Shown here piece by piece: positions 8,500 through 41,825 of a stretch of DNA of 41,825 bases. The number at the start of each line of letters is the position of its first letter. The stretch's first letter is position 1. This DNA is from a virus. The notes beneath the pieces were generated by a model, which was given only the letters and a program-made list of their open reading frames with translations, was not told the DNA's origin and made no database searches. The position numbers were made by a program, and so were the translations under genes. Location of the stretch: positions 1 through 41,825 of the IMG/VR virus record IMGVR_UViG_3300045974_000095, one strand, 5' to 3'.

Positions 8500-9186
8500 A
8501 TGGGGAATGGGATCACAGCATGGTCGCCGAGCCGACTCTTCACGTACGAAGAGTGCCCGCGGAAGGCGCGGTACAAGTTCATCGAGAAGCTGCCGGACCC
8601 GGGGGGTCCGGCCATGACGCGCGGCACCGAGATCCACGGCTACGCGGAGGGGTATGTGAAGGGCGTGTTGCCCGACGTCCACCCCACGCTCGCCAAGGTG
8701 ACGAAGCTGCTCGAGGAGCTGAAGGCGGGGCACAAGAAGGGTGTCGTCAAGGCCGAGCTGGACCTCGCGGTGACCAAGGACTGGAAGGCCACCTCGTGGT
8801 TCGGCGCCGACGCCTGGGCCCGGTTCAAGATCGACATCCTCTACATGGTCACGCCCCAGCTCGCTCGGGTGATCGACTGGAAGACCGGCAAATACAAACC
8901 GGACGGTGAGTACTCGGACCAGCTGAACTCCTACGCCGTGGCCGCTCTGTCGGTCCTCCCCACCATCGAGGAGACCACCGCCCAGCTCGTGTTCACGGAC
9001 CACGGCTTCGAGCCGGTGGAGCGGCCGGAGGGCACCATCGACCGCCCGAACCTGAAGGCCGCGCAGGAGTACTGGACCGAGCGCGTGGAGCCGTTCTTCA
9101 AGGACGAAGTCTGGGTGACGCGCCCTGGCAACGGATGCCGCTGGTGTCCATACGGAAAGGCGAAGAATGGCCCCTGCGAATTCTGA
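8500..9186 (+). CDS. PD-(D/E)XK exonuclease, Cas4/RecB-like, with a 4-Cys cluster.
   Basis: There is an N-terminal Cys (YEECPRKARYKF), a nuclease core (FKIDILY...VIDWKTGK...QLNSYA) and a C-terminal CRWCPYGKAKNGPC. Confidence 0.8.
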   Translation: MGNGITAWSPSRLFTYEECPRKARYKFIEKLPDPGGPAMTRGTEIHGYAEGYVKGVLPDVHPTLAKVTKLLEELKAGHKKGVVKAELDLAVTKDWKATSWFGADAWARFKIDILYMVTPQLARVIDWKTGKYKPDGEYSDQLNSYAVAALSVLPTIEETTAQLVFTDHGFEPVERPEGTIDRPNLKAAQEYWTERVEPFFKDEVWVTRPGNGCRWCPYGKAKNGPCEF

Positions 9187-28370: not shown

Positions 28371-29702
28371 TTAGTACCAGATGCAGTACGAGCCAATCTG
28401 CGCCGTGTGAGCTGCGGCGGCAGATGGGGCCATGACGAGACTAATCGTGCCCGTGGCGTTCATCACGCCACCGATCTGGATGGTGTCGATAAACACGCGG
28501 GCGGCTCCGCCCGTGATGACGTTGGCCGTGCATCCCGCCGCGCACGTCGCGGTGGCGAGGGCGTTCGTGGACTGAAGTGCCTCGGTGCGGGCGGGGAGCG
28601 TACCAGCGAGCCCGATGACTGCGTAGGTGTTCGCAGTCGTTACCGTGCCACTAGACTGAATCCCGTAGCGCGGCTGATTCACCGCAGAGGGCCGCGTCAT
28701 CAGGATGGCGCAGCGCCCGCTGTACGGAGCCCCTGCGGCGTAAGTCCCCGAGGTCATCGGTACTCCGCCAGCCCCCACGATTCCGAGTGTGTTCGCCACG
28801 GCAGACGACGCCCAGGTGGCAGTGAGTTCGGTGGTGGTCCCGACTCCCGCCGCACCAGTAGGTCCTGTCGGTCCAGTCGGCCCTGTCGCGCCAGTCGGCC
28901 CCGTCGGACCAGTCGCGCCTACATCTCCCCTGGGAATAGTGAAGTTGAACGTGGCCGCAGACGAACTACCGCTGTTGGTTACGGAAGCGGAAGTGCCCGG
29001 TGCTCCGGTGGTGGTTGTTCCTACAGTGATCGTCGCTGCCGCACCGTTGGTCCCGTTCGATCCCGCAGGCCCGGTAGGTCCGGTCGGACCGGCGGGGCCG
29101 GTCGCCCCGGCTGCTCCCGCAGCCCCTGGAGTTCCTGCCGCTCCGTCTGCGCCTGCTGGACCAGTAGGGCCCGTCGCTCCGGCGGCCCCTGGCGCTCCAT
29201 TCGTCCCATTCGTACCCGCTGGACCTGTAGGCCCTGTCGCGCCTGTCGCACCTGGGGAGCCTGGAGCTCCCGGAGTTCCTGCGGCTCCTGCAGGACCCGT
29301 AGGGCCTGTCGGTCCGGTTGGGCCTGGAGCTCCGGCCGCTGCGGCGCATGTCGGCACTCCGGTCGCGGAGATCCCCGTGGCGAATAGCCCCGGAGTGCAG
29401 GCAGATCCGGCGTAGGCGCCGAGCGTCGTGGCCGTTCCGTAAGTCTGCAGGACTCCCGCCGAACCAGCGGGGGCGCTTCCTCCGCCACCGCCGGTCCCCG
29501 GAGGTCCCTGCGGACCAGGAGGCCCTTGGGGGCCGACCTGCATCGGCACCGTGATGGTGCCGTAGGTTCCCTGGACCTTGCAGTCGATCCCAGTTCCCGC
29601 GCAGTTGAGCGTGTTGACCACGCCCTTGTTCTGCCCCTCCTTCTGGATGGTCAGCTGCGCGGGATACTGCGAGAGCAGCAGAGCCAGGATGAGTGCGTTC
29701 AC
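28371..29702 (-). CDS. Collagen-like (G-X-Y repeat) fibre protein with a hydrophobic N-terminus.
   Basis: GTG 29702 overlaps the upstream stop (GTGA), with an AGGAA RBS. The N-terminus is [15 protein letters not shown]. Long [34 protein letters not shown]... tracts are present. The C-terminal domain is globular and Ala/Thr-rich. Confidence 0.7.
28851..29535. repeat. Interrupted 9-bp-periodic G-X-Y coding repeats (collagen-like tracts).
   Basis: GGNCCNGTN / GGNCCNGCN-type triplet-of-triplets repeats are visible at 28851-28930, 29041-29340 and about 29490-29535. Confidence 0.8.
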
Positions 29703-30745
29703 TTGCAGTTCCTGTAGTTGGCCGTCGCCGCGCAGATATTCAGGTCCTTGATGTATCCGGTGAACTGGAACCCCGCACCTTGGGTCTGTCCGATGCCCAT
29801 ATCTGAGGGAGATGCAGTCCACAACCCTGTACCCGCCCCGGATGTCGCACCAGAAACGACCACGCCGTTTATGCTCATGGTCAGCGTCCCGCTGGCGTTG
29901 CAGATCACGATACGCTGCGCGGAACCGTCCGCAAGCGTGCCCGTGATGCCCGAAGCCGCCACCTGCTTCGCTCCTGCCGCAGAGTCGTACACTTCGAAGA
30001 TCAGATCGGGCGGCGACTGGCGCAGTCGGAATGAGTTGATCCCACCATCGGGCCCGCCCTGCATCATACGGAATCCGCCGCCAATCGTGGTGGCCCAAGA
30101 TCGACCATCTGCGGGCTGGTATGTCGCAGCGAGACACCAGTTTGGCGTGAGGGTTGGGAACCCCAACGAGTTCATGTTGTCGGAAGACCGTGCCACCGCT
30201 CCAGCGGTGGTCGGGATGTAGGACGTGCGGAATGCCAGAGGTTCAACTTGCGCTCGTGTCGTGCCCGCGCTCGTGGTGACGAGTACCGTGCCCCCCACAG
30301 TCACCGTGAAGGGACAGACCACCCCAGACGCTACACCGGAGCAGGCCAGTCCGGTGACGGTAGCGGTTCCGGCCACCACGGTCAGCGTTCCACCGACCTG
30401 CCATGCGACGTGGCTGCCCGCGGACAGGGCGGCAGTTGCTTCCGTGGTCTTGGGGTGCGTGCCGGAGTTGAGCAGGTAGTTGGTGCTTCCGAACTCCACC
30501 AGATACCCCTGCGAGGCCACTCGGTAGAGCCCCGTCGCGCACGTCTGTACCGTCCCAGAGCCGTCGACGTAGGTCGCTGTCGACGCCCGCCCGAAGCCCA
30601 CCGTTCCGCCGGTAGGGTAGCATCCCGGCGTGTTGAATGCCCATCGGCGCGTGACGCGCTCCTGACTCGCACCGGGGGGCCCGTTGGCCCACCCCTGACC
30701 AAAGGCCAGGGATGGTAGGAGCAGAAGTAGTGCAAGGATCTTCAT
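29699..30745 (-). CDS. Predicted secreted protein with a lectin/LamG-like beta-sandwich character.
   Basis: The Sec-type signal peptide is [18 protein letters not shown], with an AGGAG RBS. The body is beta-rich and Gly/Thr/Ala-rich. The fold assignment is only an impression. Confidence 0.45.
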
Positions 30746-34174: not shown

Positions 34175-34427
34175 TGGCCCGAGGCTTGCAGGCCTCAGCA
34201 CTCGGCACGATGTTTGCATGGCTCTGCACTCTGGCTCGCTCCTTGCATGTCCGTACTCTGGCTTGGGTCTTGCAGGGGATGCAAGGACCGGACCGACGCA
34301 CCCGGCCCCAAACTCGGCACGGACCTTGCACCCGGATCCGCGGGCTGGGAGCTTGGCACGGACCTTGCTAGCGCTCCCAGTCTGGCCTAACCCTTGCATC
34401 CCTCTGGGGTCGGCTTGATACTTGCAT
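34175..34427 (+). repeat. Tandem array (~28-bp period, 8 good units plus 1 degenerate) of sigma54-promoter-like units YGGCNN-N5-TTGCW.
   Basis: GG dinucleotides occur at 34176, 34204, 34233, 34260, 34316, 34355, 34384 and 34412. Each has a GC exactly 12 nt downstream, within TTGC(A/T). Units usually end in (A/G)CTC or AGTC before the next TGGC/CGGC. Confidence 0.75.
34354..34369 (+). promoter_or_regulatory. Best sigma54 (-24/-12) consensus match within the array: TGGCACG-gacc-TTGCT.
   Basis: It is an exact match to TGGCACG-N4-TTGCW. Near-identical copies are at 34315..34330 (CGGCACGGACCTTGCA) and 34203..34219 (CGGCACGATGTTTGCAT). Confidence 0.4.
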
Positions 34428-34701: not shown

Positions 34702-34717
34702 TGGCATGGCCGCTGCA
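34702..34717 (+). promoter_or_regulatory. Sigma54-like promoter candidate for the early operon: TGGCATG-gccg-CTGCA.
   Basis: GG is at 34703-4 and GC at 34715-6 (12-nt spacing). The predicted start is about 34728, 57 nt upstream of ATG 34785. There are two mismatches to the consensus. Confidence 0.35.
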
Positions 34718-34784: not shown

Positions 34785-35087
34785 ATGGCCACGAAGCCCG
34801 TTGTCCCCGCCACGACCGCCACCCCCGCCGTTGCCGCGAAGCCCGCCCGCAAGGGTATGACCAAGGAGCAGAGGGCCGCCTACGTCGCCAAGTCCTACGT
34901 CAACTTCTCGCCCACCACCCAGGCCACCATCAAGGTCCTGTCGGCCACCAACCCCAAGCGGGGCGACAGCGCCGCCCGGTTCGCGCTCTACACCAACGGC
35001 ATGACGGTGGCCCAGGCCATCGCGGCGGGCGTGTGGATGGCCGATATCCGGTGGGACGTGGCCCACAAGTTCATCGAGGTCGCGTAG
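34785..35087 (+). CDS. Early protein, paralog A, with the conserved C-terminal NPKR...RWDV domain.
   Basis: The RBS is AAAGGAG. The C-terminal TNPKRGDSAARFALYTNGMTVAQAIAAGVWMADIRWDVAHKFIEV is paralogous to the C-terminus of 35914..36435. Confidence 0.6.
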   Translation: MATKPVVPATTATPAVAAKPARKGMTKEQRAAYVAKSYVNFSPTTQATIKVLSATNPKRGDSAARFALYTNGMTVAQAIAAGVWMADIRWDVAHKFIEVA

Positions 35088-35093
35088 CACCCA

Positions 35094-35156
35094 GGCCGAA
35101 ACCCTAGCCCCCTCACGGGGGCGGGGTCGGTGGGTTCCGCCCACCCTGACGAGGCC
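35094..35156 (+). ncRNA. Type II hammerhead ribozyme, copy 1 (predicted cleavage after C35128).
   Basis: The elements, in order, are:
- GGCC-GAAA (35094-35101).
- Stem III, ACCC...GGGU, with inner CCCCC/GGGGG.
- GUC cleavage site.
- Stem I, GGUGGG-uuccg-CCCACC.
- CUGACGA (35146-52).
- GGCC pairing back to 35094-97. Confidence 0.8.
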
Positions 35157-35173
35157 AGACCGCCCCCAAGGAG

Positions 35174-35401
35174 ATGGTGATGGTATACGCGAAGCTGGTT
35201 GACGGCATTACGGCCCGGAGCGCGAACAGCGTGAAGCCCGGGATGCAGCTGAAAATCGGCAGCGACTGGTTCAAGGTGACCCGGGTATGGAGCGGCGTGG
35301 CCTCCCAGCGAAACCTGTTCTGCGTCGAGGTGGCCCTGCCCTCGGGCGACCACTACACGAACACCTACCCCGACTTCATGAAGGAGGTGTTCACCAAGTA
35401 G
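35174..35401 (+). CDS. Small early protein (hypothetical), flanked by hammerheads 1 and 2.
   Basis: The protein is 75 aa. AAGGAG lies at 35168-73, so ATG 35180 may be the true start. Third-position GC is high. Confidence 0.55.
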   Translation: MVMVYAKLVDGITARSANSVKPGMQLKIGSDWFKVTRVWSGVASQRNLFCVEVALPSGDHYTNTYPDFMKEVFTK

Positions 35402-35407
35402 CACCCA

Positions 35408-35462
35408 GGCCGAAAGGGGGGTCTAGCCCCCCTCCGCCCGTGATGCGGGCGCTGATGAGGCC
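35408..35462 (+). ncRNA. Type II hammerhead ribozyme, copy 2 (predicted cleavage after C35434).
   Basis: The elements, in order, are:
- GGCC-GAAA (35408-15).
- Stem III, AGGGGGG-ucuag-CCCCCCU.
- C17.
- Stem I, CGCCCG-ugaug-CGGGCG.
- CUGAUGA (35452-58).
- GGCC (35459-62). Confidence 0.85.
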
Positions 35463-35486
35463 AGACCGCCTACCGAGGAGATACCG

Positions 35487-35690
35487 ATGGCAGCCCGCCT
35501 GTATTCGCTGTTCGAGCGCCGAGATGGCCGTTGGGTGCGCATCTCGCCCCTGGCCTTTACGAAGGCCAACGCCGTGAGCATCTACCAGAACCTGCTGCTC
35601 GCCTACCCCCTGGGTGCCGCGAAGCACGAGCGAAGCCTGAGGGTGGTGAAGAGCTGCGACGAGCCCCCGGCGCAGCCCCGCATCGACTAG
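35487..35690 (+). CDS. Small early protein (hypothetical), flanked by hammerheads 2 and 3.
   Basis: The protein is 67 aa, with a GAGGAG RBS 7 nt upstream. Confidence 0.55.
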   Translation: MAARLYSLFERRDGRWVRISPLAFTKANAVSIYQNLLLAYPLGAAKHERSLRVVKSCDEPPAQPRID

Positions 35691-35697
35691 AACCGTA

Positions 35698-35796
35698 GGC
35701 CGAAACTCCACCTTACACGCACGGGCGCGCGAGCCCGACGGGGCAGCCCGAACAGGGCGGGTGGAGTCGGGGTGTGAGGCACCCCCTGATGAGGCC
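35698..35796 (+). ncRNA. Type II hammerhead ribozyme, copy 3, with a ~47-nt insertion in stem III (predicted cleavage after C35768).
   Basis: The elements, in order, are:
- GGCC-GAAA (35698-705).
- Stem III, ACUCCACC...GGUGGAGU.
- GUC cleavage site.
- Stem I, GGGGUG-ugagg-CACCCC.
- CUGAUGA (35786-92).
- GGCC (35793-96). Confidence 0.75.
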
Positions 35797-35840
35797 AATG
35801 ATAGCCGAACTCACGCCCCAAAAGGTACGCCTGACATCGC

Positions 35841-35868
35841 TTGCGTATGCTGTAGATCCGTGTATAAT
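35841..35868 (+). promoter_or_regulatory. Sigma70-type promoter with extended -10 (TTGCGT-N16-gTGtATAAT).
   Basis: It shares the upstream CATCGCTTGCG and the GTGTATAAT with the promoter at 37053. It lies inside the listed ORF 35761..36435, which argues for the downstream start at 35914. Confidence 0.5.
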
Positions 35869-35913: not shown

Positions 35914-36435
35914 ATGGCCGAGTTGTGTCTGCTCTGTAACAAAGCGTTCCGAGATGGTCAGGCCATCGTGGCCCTTCCGACCGGACATGCTGCTCACCAA
36001 ACCTGCATCCAGGAGAGAAAAGCCATGGCATCTGCCAAGCCCGTCGTCGCCAAGCCCGTCGTCGCCAAGCCCGTCGCCCCCGCCGCCAAGCCGGTCGCCC
36101 CGGTGAAGCCGGTGGCCCCCGTGAAGCCCGCCGCCCCGGTCGCCACCGAGGCCACCCCCGTGGAGCCGAAGGAGAAGAAGGAGCGCGTCAAGCTGAGCGA
36201 CGAGGAGAAGGCCGCCCGCAAGGCGAGCCGGTTCGCCGCCATCAACGTCGAGGAGTTCCTCGGCAACACCATCACCCTCGCGGTCAGCGAGAACCCCAAG
36301 CGGGCCGGGTCCACCTCCGCCGCCCGCTTCGACCTCTACGTGAACGGCATGACGGTCGCCGCCGCGCTCGAGGCCGGCGTCACCGCCGCCGACGTCCGCT
36401 GGGACGTGGGGCACGGCTTCATCACCCTGGGCTAG
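35914..36435 (+). CDS. Early protein, paralog B: N-terminal Cys/His zinc-finger-like segment, Pro-rich AKPV repeat linker and C-terminal NPKR...RWDV domain.
   Basis: The RBS is AGGGAG. The N-terminus is CLLCNKAFRDGQAIVALPTGHAAHQTC. The linker is AKPVVAKPVVAKPVAPAAKPVAPVKPVAPVKP. The C-terminal ENPKRAGSTSAARFDLYVNGMTVAAALEAGVTAADVRWDVGHGFITL is paralogous to 34785..35087. Confidence 0.6.
   Translation: MAELCLLCNKAFRDGQAIVALPTGHAAHQTCIQERKAMASAKPVVAKPVVAKPVAPAAKPVAPVKPVAPVKPAAPVATEATPVEPKEKKERVKLSDEEKAARKASRFAAINVEEFLGNTITLAVSENPKRAGSTSAARFDLYVNGMTVAAALEAGVTAADVRWDVGHGFITLG
36034..36141 (+). repeat. Imperfect 15-bp / 12-bp tandem coding repeats (GCCAAGCCCGTCGTC and variants).
   Basis: GCCAAGCCCGTCGTC occurs at 36034 and 36049, followed by degenerate copies encoding AKPV/APVKPV. 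Confidence 0.7.
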
Positions 36436-36443
36436 TCCCACTC

Positions 36444-36477
36444 GCCCGAGCCTCGCAAGGGGTTCGGGCTTTCTTTT
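36444..36477 (+). terminator. Intrinsic terminator ending the hammerhead-containing early operon.
   Basis: The stem GCCCGAGCC / GGGUUCGGGC is followed by TTTCTTTT. Confidence 0.7.
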
Positions 36478-36540
36478 CAGCTAGCTCACCCCCAGAAGGG
36501 TGGTTGGCTGAAAAGGAAGCGTGGGGCTTCCTACAAGGAG

Positions 36541-41276: not shown

Positions 41277-41825
41277 ATGTTCACCGAAGAAAGAGTGTTG
41301 GCGTTCTTCAACTACATCTACCAGCGCGAGCTGATTCGACAGGCCAAGGTCAACCTCGACCCGTGGCCCTGGACCGACGACCCCATCCTGCAGAAGTTCA
41401 AGTTCACCAACGTCAAGCGGAAGAACGACCGCACCACTCAGCACTTCATCAAGATATACAACGAGCACCTGGGGGCCGACCCGTCGGTCGCCCTCTACAA
41501 CTGCGGAGTGTTCCGGTACTTCGGCACGATGGAGTGGGCCAACGAGTTCGGGTGGTCCGACGCGCACCGGGGCTCGAAGATGATCGCCACCGCCGCCGAG
41601 ATGCTGAAGCACGGACACAAGGTGTTCACCGGCGCCTACGTCATCACGAACAGCGGGCGGACTGGGCCGAAGCACGTCGTGGTGGAGGAGTACCTCCGGG
41701 CGCTGTGGAAGAAAGCCGATCAGGTGGTGGGGATGATGCACCTGAACCACGCCTGGGAGGCCGGGTTCAACGAGCTGAAGAAGCTGCCGGGGTTCGCGGG
41801 CACCGGCTTCATGGCCAAGGAGGTC
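41277..41825 (+). CDS. 5' part of the wrap-around aGPT-Pplase-like hypermodification gene (continues into 128..445).
   Basis: ATG 41277 follows TAGGAGG and is open to the window end. The translation begins MFTEERVLAFFNYIYQRELIRQAKVNLDPWPWTDDPILQKFKFTNVKRKNDRTTQHF... Confidence 0.5.
   Translation, partial: MFTEERVLAFFNYIYQRELIRQAKVNLDPWPWTDDPILQKFKFTNVKRKNDRTTQHFIKIYNEHLGADPSVALYNCGVFRYFGTMEWANEFGWSDAHRGSKMIATAAEMLKHGHKVFTGAYVITNSGRTGPKHVVVEEYLRALWKKADQVVGMMHLNHAWEAGFNELKKLPGFAGTGFMAKEV
41699..41825. repeat. Second copy of the 127-nt terminal overlap.
   Basis: It is identical to 1..127. Confidence 0.95.

Follow-up and report, generated by a model that had tools for sequence, protein, structure and literature searches.

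When the same small RNA motif stands behind each of three consecutive genes of a virus, the question raised is whether the motif is a working ribozyme, and what its regular placement would do to the messages of the genes around it. We address this question for the window, meaning the whole 41,825-nucleotide (nt) stretch of IMG/VR record IMGVR_UViG_3300045974_000095, which is one contig, a complete phage genome with a guanine-plus-cytosine (GC) content of 62-65%. Three elements, here termed HH1, HH2 and HH3, occur within 703 nt on the coding strand, each behind one of three consecutive open reading frames (ORFs), genes 1, 2 and 3. We conclude from the sequence, with good confidence, that HH1-HH3 are probably genuine type II hammerhead self-cleaving ribozymes, each lying in the 3' spacer of a small early gene and cutting the transcript there. 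The motif, its fold, its significance, its conservation and its covariation are matters of observation; cleavage is predicted from the perfect core, together with published tests of similar clusters.

The three elements

The elements, in order of their positions, are:

35094-35156, plus strand: HH1, type II hammerhead, predicted cut after C17 at 35128, cleavage triplet GUC
35408-35462, plus strand: HH2, type II hammerhead, predicted cut after C17 at 35434, cleavage triplet CUC
35698-35796, plus strand: HH3, type II hammerhead whose stem III is long and branched, predicted cut after C17 at 35768, cleavage triplet GUC

All three have the type II permutation, i.e. GGCC-GAAA-hairpin III-C17-hairpin I-CUGANGA-GGCC, in which loops cap stems I and III and the 5' and 3' ends lie in stem II. 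GAAA directly follows GGCC in each copy and supplies G12, A13 and A14, and the core strand from C3 to A9 is CUGACGA in HH1 (35146-52) and CUGAUGA in both HH2 (35452-58) and HH3 (35786-92). The A15.1-U16.1 pairs are 35101-35127, 35415-35433 and 35705-35767, the G10.1-C11.1 pair that closes stem II is present in every copy, and position 17 is in all three an unpaired C, thus non-G as the NUH rule has it. Stem II is the identical palindromic GGCC/GGCC of 4 base pairs (bp) throughout, with an A on either side (in HH1, at -1, position 35093, and at +1, position 35157).

The hairpins differ from copy to copy. HH1 has stem III ACCC(U)/(G)GGGU, capped by an apical hairpin GCCCCC-UCAC-GGGGGC, and stem I GGUGGG-UUCCG-CCCACC. 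HH2 has stem III AGGGGGG/CCCCCCU and stem I CGCCCG-UGAUG-CGGGCG, and its CUC triplet gives a G15.2-C16.2 pair. HH3 has stem III ACUCCACC/GGUGGAGU, with an apical insert of ~49 nt, and stem I GGGGUG-UGAGG-CACCCC. The flanks of HH1 and HH2 are identical (cacccaGGCCGAAA, GAGGCCagaccgcc) despite their wholly different stems.

An earlier note on this DNA had described the three elements, and its coordinates, core, type II topology, triplets and predicted cut sites match our reading of the sequence base for base. Its distance of 7-8 nt from each stop codon to the start of the ribozyme agrees with our measurements: GGCC starts 7, 7 and 8 nt past the last bases of the stop codons (35085-87, 35399-401 and 35688-90), leaving 6, 6 and 7 nt between. 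Its further statement, that the stems covary fully between the copies around an invariant core, is likewise borne out, and extends to orthologous copies in related contigs, the stems of which also change in a compensatory manner.

Significance and fold

Our own type II descriptor (stem II of at least 3 bp, GAAA, a stem III hairpin closed by A..U, H at position 17, a stem I hairpin of at least 4 bp, and CUGANGA) matched exactly HH1, HH2 and HH3 on both strands of the whole window, and gave no match in 300 dinucleotide-preserving shuffles. The literal pattern GGCCGAAA-N20-50-CTGAYGAGGCC has an expectation of 0.00. The CTGANGA heptamer taken alone occurs at chance level (26 vs 25.8 expected), and the signal is thus that of the full arrangement. 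Neither a type I or type III arrangement nor a half-motif was found in the window, Rfam searches at E <= 1 revealed no other ribozyme class in it, and it has no tRNA. For HH1, HH2 and HH3 alike, the minimum-energy fold is the three-way hammerhead junction.

Conservation in close relatives

Searches with the gene 1 and gene 3 proteins reached short metagenome contigs of three close relatives, L123, L124 and L133, which together contain six orthologous copies with the core kept and the stems changed compensatorily. L124, whose DNA alignment with the window is 83% identical overall, has HH1 (566-628) and HH3 (866-936) at the same places. The HH1 orthologue of L123 (550-618) has a GGCC that overlaps the TAG stop codon, another stem III, of 13 bp, stem I GGCGGG/CCCGCC, and A at position 17. 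L133 has three copies, including an HH2 orthologue (93-148) in which the strands of stem III are swapped, G for C and C for G, and an HH3 orthologue (640-711); the HH3 orthologues of both L124 and L133 have shorter stem III tips.

Over the nine lineage copies (those of the window, L123, L124 and L133), pairing amounts to 97.9%, 9 pairs have changed on both sides, and the covariation value is 0.58 vs 0.12 when shuffled, with no change in the core, in stem II or in either flanking A (-1 and +1). Conservation limited to the catalytic bases and stem II, with compensatory change in both hairpins, is the mark of a ribozyme fold under selection.

The apical hairpin of HH1 shows a particular form of change, being GCCCCC-UCAC-GGGGGC in the window (35107-35122) and GCCCCC-GUGA-GGGGGC in L124 (579-594), i.e. 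an exact inversion in which the loop is reverse-complemented.

A family model from other viral contigs

When used on IMG/VR, the literal pattern given above found at least 120 contigs, several of them with arrays, of up to 9 copies (L010). A covariance model, R1, was built from 70 non-redundant copies of other viral contigs, the alignment of which has hammerhead pairing in 94.6% of its cells and covariation of 0.60, vs 0.15 shuffled and ~0.1 with slid partners. R1 scores HH2 at 64.7, HH1 at 55.3 (E 4e-13) and HH3 at 53.3 bits, with E-values of about 1e-12 to 1e-15; the pattern behind its seeds was derived from the window, so that core and stem II match by construction, and the independent evidence in these scores is that of stems I and III, loops and flanks only. 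Nothing in the rest of the genome exceeds 11.5 bits under R1. Stem II also covaries across the family (GGUC/GACC, AGCC/GGCU, GCGC/GCGC).

The placement seen in the window is likewise found in the family. Directly upstream of 115 of 128 family ribozymes (90%) is an ORF of at least 50 codons, vs 20% for random positions, and in 60 of these 115 cases the first G of stem II belongs to the stop codon (TAG-GCC) or adjoins it; the start of the ribozyme is thus locked to the stop codon. Of 149 family copies, 147 have an A just before stem II; a U never follows stem II, and a loop I of the pattern U-N-A-N-G is conserved. These features hint at another type of contact, and at a stem II of strictly 4 bp.

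A further feature concerns the 3' tail after stem II, which is RUCAG in 53 of 140 distinct type II copies of the GGCC type (e.g. in L002, L007, L021, L022 and L024). RUCAG is complementary to the core CUGAY and covaries with N7: C7 occurs with GUCAG in 38 copies and with AUCAG in 0, and U7 with AUCAG in 15 and with GUCAG in 0. From this pattern, the tail is read as part of a conserved alternative hairpin, in which the catalytic core would be sequestered. None of the three copies in the window has it, and no mention of it was found in PMC3088659.

Predicted processing of the early transcript

As the polymerase passes an element, stems III and I would fold as local hairpins, after which the 4-bp stem II (GGCC/GGCC) would close the junction and the 2'-OH of C17 would attack the adjacent phosphate, with cuts after 35128, 35434 and 35768. 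The early transcript would be converted in this way, co-transcriptionally, into single-gene RNAs. Each upstream RNA would have its 3' end ~40-80 nt past the stop codon, where the stem III hairpin would carry a 2',3'-cyclic phosphate, and in each downstream RNA the stem I hairpin would come first and bear the 5'-OH. Ends of the hairpin/cyclic-phosphate and 5'-OH kinds should be poor substrates for the routes by which bacterial RNA decay usually begins, i.e. 3' exonucleases and polyadenylation, and RNase E in its 5'-monophosphate-stimulated mode.

For genes 2 and 3, the stem I hairpin lies 51-52 nt before the start codon and is followed by a Shine-Dalgarno (SD) sequence with a 6-nt spacer. The earlier claim that the cut RNA begins just ahead of its ribosome-binding site holds for HH1 and HH2; it fails for HH3, where 145 nt, with a promoter-like element among them, separate the cut from the next start codon (35914).

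The short and regular distance from stop codon to stem II raises the possibility that cleavage is conditional, in that a terminating ribosome would cover and melt the 5' strand of stem II, making cutting dependent on when, or how much, the upstream gene is translated, and the element a translation-sensitive switch for the downstream message. With gaps of only 6, 6 and 7 nt in the window and the overlapping or abutting stop codon in 60 of the 115 family cases, a fixed and very short distance would, given the known ribosome footprint, suggest a link with termination. However, hammerheads usually cut co-transcriptionally within seconds and in bacteria the first ribosome trails the polymerase, so that the cut may come first, and the tight spacing may simply reflect genome economy; we thus consider a translation-dependent switch unlikely.

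A second variant begins with the same cuts and adds ligation. The excised segments (35129-35434 and 35435-35768) would become circular single-gene RNAs, or the transcript would be spliced, with the hammerhead halves re-pairing via GGCC/GGCC and the reaction reversing, or an RtcB-type ligase joining the ends. The idea has been raised before (PMC3088659) and is structurally reasonable insofar as stems I and III of type II hammerheads are self-contained and stem II alone joins the halves; the identical palindromic stem II with A/A flanks in three copies would also make hybrid ribozymes structurally possible. Yet spliced or circular products were sought in comparable clusters and none was found (PMC3088659), neighbours within other arrays differ in stem II (GCGC/GGCC/GCGC in L078; GGUC-GACC/GGCC in L099), so that sharing it is no family requirement, and a 4-bp helix of intermolecular type is weak. 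Ligation after cleavage is accordingly regarded as improbable, more so than a translation-dependent switch. Co-transcriptional cutting into separate single-gene RNAs is the reading that we prefer to both.

Weighing the case for catalysis

The likely pay-off of such cutting is that the expression of each small gene would be insulated from that of its neighbours and the RNAs stabilised. This pay-off is derived purely from general knowledge of RNA decay, and it is the first of several points that weigh against the conclusion reached here; the circular element in the R1 seed pattern, described above, is another. A third concerns tertiary contacts. The best pseudoknots between loop I and the 3' tail are of 4 bp for HH1 (to the SD sequence GGAG), 2 bp for HH2 and 4 bp for HH3 (13 nt away), none being significant against shuffled tails (P 0.5, 1.0 and 0.36); with no significant pseudoknot in the window copies, fast cleavage at physiological Mg2+ would need some other tertiary contact. 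The HH1 orthologue of L123 has a perfect adjacent 5-bp pseudoknot match, UAUCG/CGAUA (P 0.06). In HH2, the CUC triplet is of a less common kind, and the G15.2-C16.2 pair that it makes occurs in 1 of the 70 seeds.

More distant relatives also count among these points. No hammerhead was found by descriptor, Rfam or R1 in the primase relatives L121 and L122 (51-54% identity), and none in the cultured phage AXL3 (PolA 43.5% identity) or in distant homologues of gene 1 or gene 3 (L125, L129-L132 and L134; 50-57% identity for gene 3). Since these relatives lack ribozymes, the elements must be dispensable for such phages.

The last of these points comes from Rfam, which at gathering thresholds gave no matches in the window. 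The covariance-model check proposed in the earlier note, once run, left HH2 below threshold, at 30.2 bits vs a gathering score of 37 for Hammerhead_II (RF02276), and HH1 and HH3 with no match to the type II model, E-value mode included. The HH2 alignment is end-to-end, with an E-value of 6e-4 over a 901-nt region and of 0.027 window-wide, and it is the sole Rfam match in the whole-window search. The weight of this result depends on how the model treats comparable sequences. In a control with ten viral loci that have descriptor-perfect copies, 3 of 9 copies were called in L010, and none in the other nine loci. Because RF02276 misses most descriptor-perfect relatives in this control, the shortfall is a sensitivity limit of the model; the gathering threshold itself is a curation convenience and not a biological criterion.

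Two other assignments were tried and rejected. HH3 can be aligned as a type III hammerhead (35761-35814, with stem II GGC-CAAUGAUA-GCC), with a score of 23.2 bits vs a gathering score of 48.5; this reading was set aside because it needs a deletion in the essential GAAA and loses A15.1, and type II is preferred because it gives a perfect core and is the minimum-energy fold. Intrinsic terminators were likewise dismissed, there being no T-run after any copy and the only terminator lying at 36444.

It might still be proposed that the elements are non-catalytic, whether as matches due to chance, as relics in decay, or as GC-rich intergenic hairpin repeats with a role as RNA stabilisers or terminators. 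The sub-threshold Rfam scores are in line with this, as is the plain long hairpin that L125, with its distant gene 1 homologue, has at the same place, and as is a decayed copy with C3 changed to U in another virus (L001, 8896-8947). Chance, however, gave 0 descriptor matches in 300 shuffles, and relics or generic hairpins would not be expected to leave the catalytic bases and stem II alone conserved, with both hairpins changing completely and compensatorily; a terminator role is opposed by the lack of a T-run behind any copy. A non-catalytic nature is the alternative to which we give the least credence, and active type II hammerheads remain the reading that we favour.

Gene-plus-ribozyme units

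With genes 1-4 abbreviated to g1-g4 and g5 a further gene, the layouts of the window and the related contigs are:

Window: g1-HH1-g2-HH2-g3-HH3-g4
L124: g1-HH1-g3-HH3-g4
L133: g1-HH2'-g3-HHnew-g5-HH3-g4
L123: g1-HH1'-another gene

The four contigs thus differ by whole gene-plus-ribozyme units. The 306-nt indel that contains gene 2 breaks inside conserved ribozyme sequence. In L124 the HH1 stems remain and the breakpoint is on the 3' side; in L133 it is the HH2 stems that remain, with the breakpoint on the 5' side. Gene 1 is just 69% identical between the window and L124, with near-identity from HH1 onward. An unrelated viral pair, L001 and L006, differs by one gene-plus-hammerhead unit, and homology there ends at the edge of the ribozyme.

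These comparisons make it possible, although we hold the idea tentatively and think it less probable than not, that the ribozymes are chiefly junctions of mobile gene cassettes, with every small accessory gene bringing along a 3' hammerhead of its own. The ~25-35 nt of near-identical core and flanks (cacccaGGCCGAAA ... CTGAYGAGGCCagaccgcc) would provide short homology for gain, loss and swapping of genes between phages, and cleavage would free the expression of a newly arrived gene from its new context, so that the idea complements the processing model. It draws on the four layouts in four related contigs with breakpoints within the ribozyme, on the identical flanks of HH1 and HH2 with all of their stems different, on the step from 69% identity in gene 1 to near-identity from HH1 on, and on the analogous difference between L001 and L006. 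However, the comparisons are a handful and cover ribozyme-bearing spacers alone as breakpoints; phage mosaic joints generally lie at gene boundaries, the conserved stretch is short for homologous recombination, and the common flanks could be a structural requirement or the result of a recent duplication. If the cassette idea is true, any incoming gene-plus-ribozyme unit would be expressible regardless of context. The role of the ribozymes as cassette boundaries is in any case a concrete, computable hypothesis.

Three observations on individual sequences may be recorded here. In L001, the element at 8896-8947 (minus strand) is a hammerhead with C3 changed to U (UUGACGA) that is otherwise 94% identical to the intact copy of L006; it is probably a decayed ribozyme, and as such a natural inactive control.

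The 99-amino acid (aa) gene after the HH1 orthologue of L123 has an internal direct repeat, CCATGGaCCGCCTGAACCTG... (826-850 and 963-990). The 61-aa version in L133 looks like the outcome of a deletion between the repeats, which would have fused the ORF to the TAG-GCC start of HH3 (L133, 600-640).

Directly after HH3, AATGATAGCCGAACTCAC (35797-35814) looks like the 5' half of a further hammerhead in degenerate form (compare cgTAGGCCGAAACTCCAC). This stretch gave rise to the sub-threshold Rfam type III match, and its tail, GAUAGCC, is also present in the HH1 orthologue of L123; it could be the relic of a lost cassette.

Genome and gene context

The contig ends carry an exact 127-bp direct repeat (1-127 and 41699-41825), and the contig is complete, circularly closed or terminally redundant, with a length of ~41.7 kb. 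It is called a phage genome because of its PolA, SNF2, primase and collagen-like fibre genes together with the 127-bp terminal repeat; the encoded products include a family A DNA polymerase, an SNF2 helicase, a DUF3854/DUF5906 primase-helicase, a collagen-like fibre protein and a TET-associated glycosyltransferase. The phage is uncultured and virulent-looking. A blastn search with the ribozyme region against 50,697 phage records gave zero matches, and the cultured relatives nearest by PolA are Pseudoxanthomonas phage PW916 and Stenotrophomonas phage AXL3, each with 43.5% identity.

The ribozymes are placed behind the first three genes of a rightward block that runs on into the replication genes. 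Apart from the ribozymes, the features of the start of this block are as follows (GC3 being the GC fraction at third codon positions):

34702..34717, plus strand: sigma-54-type promoter-like sequence TGGCATGGCCGCTGCA, 68 nt upstream of the gene 1 start
34785..35087, plus strand: gene 1, 100 aa, no family, GC3 0.96
35180..35401, plus strand: gene 2, 73 aa (75 aa if the start is 35174), ORFan, GC3 0.92
35487..35690, plus strand: gene 3, 67 aa, no family, GC3 0.88
35841..35868, plus strand: promoter-like element TTGCGT-16 nt-TATAAT, between HH3 and gene 4
35914..36435, plus strand: gene 4, 173 aa, N-terminal RING-like zinc finger, C-terminal domain in common with gene 1
36444..36479 (also given as 36444-36469), plus strand: intrinsic terminator with an 11-bp stem and a T-run, from a terminator scan

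The pattern TGGCAYG-N4-YTGCW has two matches in the window, both in the divergent intergenic region (34354-34369 and 34702-34717), vs 0.05 expected, and the second is kept in L124 as TGGCACGGGCGCTGCA. This second match is a candidate for the start of the ribozyme-bearing transcript; an RpoN-dependent start of a phage early operon would be unusual. The TTGCGT-16-TATAAT pattern has one match in the window vs 0 expected and is identical in L124, with a weak -35 hexamer; a stricter consensus promoter scan did not call the 35841-35868 element. The terminator at 36444 is the first terminator-like site downstream of the ribozymes, and its stem shows compensatory changes relative to L124.

Genes 1-3 are taken as real coding regions because their GC3 values are 0.88-0.96 in a genome of 62-65% GC. 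The boundaries that had been proposed for genes 1 and 3 stand; the proposed start of gene 2 at 35174 does not, the start being most likely ATG 35180, which is preferred because AAGGAG (35168-73) then sits 6 nt away, as in genes 1 and 3. Gene 1 gave no match to Pfam or PHROG and has protein homologues in L123 (83% identity) and L124 (69%). Its C-terminal ~45 aa are paralogous to the C terminus of gene 4, with 47% identity over the aligned part, and the domain common to both reads NPKR..AARF.LY.NGMTVA.A..AGV..AD.RWDV.H.FI. A search of 5.8 billion proteins for homologues of gene 2 returned only gene 2 itself, and the alignment shows the gene to be missing from L124 and L133. Gene 3 has homologues in L124 and L133 (88% identity), and more distant ones elsewhere. 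Gene 4 matches Pfam PF10367 (zf-Vps39_C) at 25.6 bits, the cutoff being 24.7; gene 4 queries against metagenome and viral sets were swamped by a low-complexity AKPV repeat.

Two genes outside this region are worth recording. The ORF at 2983-3987 (plus strand) matches the TET-associated glycosyltransferase family PF20691 (E 1.5e-17), which suggests that the phage has a DNA base hypermodification module. The ORF at 28371-30137 (minus strand), of 588 aa, has collagen triple-helix repeats (PF01391, E 1.5e-18) and presumably encodes a tail fibre.

Comparison with known systems

Natural type II hammerheads were discovered by Perreault et al. (2011, PMC3088659), who also reported that multiple hammerheads often flank single genes of variable identity in prophages. 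For such clusters, processing into single-gene mRNAs was proposed, and three clustered arrangements were found to cleave during in vitro transcription, that of A. tumefaciens also in vivo, in E. coli (PMC3088659). Later reviews likewise place hammerheads on the flanks of small non-conserved ORFs in phage contexts, and describe their role as largely elusive (PMC6765202, PMC6155905).

With respect to the type II class as a whole (RF02276; bacteria, archaea and phages; PMC3088659), the window copies have the same catalytic core, and the same location in phage intergenic spacers on the coding strand. They differ in that stem II is 4 bp of GGCC with A/A flanks, whereas the RF02276 consensus has 2-3 bp, and in that the stem III of HH3 is unusually long and branched. 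In the majority of the type II members described in 2011, loop I also pairs with the nucleotides directly 3' of stem II in a pseudoknot of 4 bp or more, whereas no convincing one is present in the window copies.

The closest parallels are the prophage clusters of Agrobacterium tumefaciens (the ardA triple), Clostridium scindens and Azorhizobium caulinodans (PMC3088659), in which, as here, ribozymes within 1-2 kb each bound a small variable gene. Those clusters are from cultured bacteria and mix ribozyme types, whereas the three copies of the window are all of type II and are found in an uncultured phage genome; unlike those of the prophage clusters, each stands right after a stop codon, at the very start of a block of replication genes. 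As the phage is uncultured, the cultured prophage examples are the more practical ones for experiment. What the window offers is a compact, unusually regular locus, with three perfect-core copies at the start of the early/replication block, and natural variants at hand, i.e. relatives minus one unit, with swapped stems, and with an extra unit, which make a ready design for testing whether the cuts serve to insulate single-gene messages or to stabilise them.

Twister, pistol and hatchet ribozymes also occur near phage-like small genes and hammerheads, and a part in the processing of polycistronic RNA has been suggested for them, their function being largely elusive (PMC6765202). They have different folds, and none is present in the window by Rfam at E <= 1.

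HHphage, of haloviruses HF1 and HF2, is likewise located in the early region of a double-stranded DNA virus, just upstream of an early gene, and a mapped transcript 5' end lies within 3 nt of its cut (PMC3088659). It differs in being a single copy and a core variant, found upstream of a helicase gene in the genome of an archaeal virus. The functional logic proposed here is the same as that of the RiboJ insulator, reportedly described by Lou et al. in 2012 in Nat Biotechnol, in which a hammerhead before the ribosome-binding site is said to remove upstream RNA and leave a 5'-OH hairpin leader, giving context-independent expression. RiboJ is however synthetic, made from a type III satellite-RNA ribozyme to which a hairpin has been added, and is not homologous to the window elements.

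In light of these precedents, the gene-ribozyme-gene layout and its proposed function have been in print since 2011, and the window holds no new ribozyme, topology or arrangement. What the present analysis adds is that related contigs differ by gene-plus-ribozyme units, which suggests that the ribozymes may double as cassette junctions; these would be loosely comparable to the attC sites of integrons, but would work at both the DNA and the RNA level.

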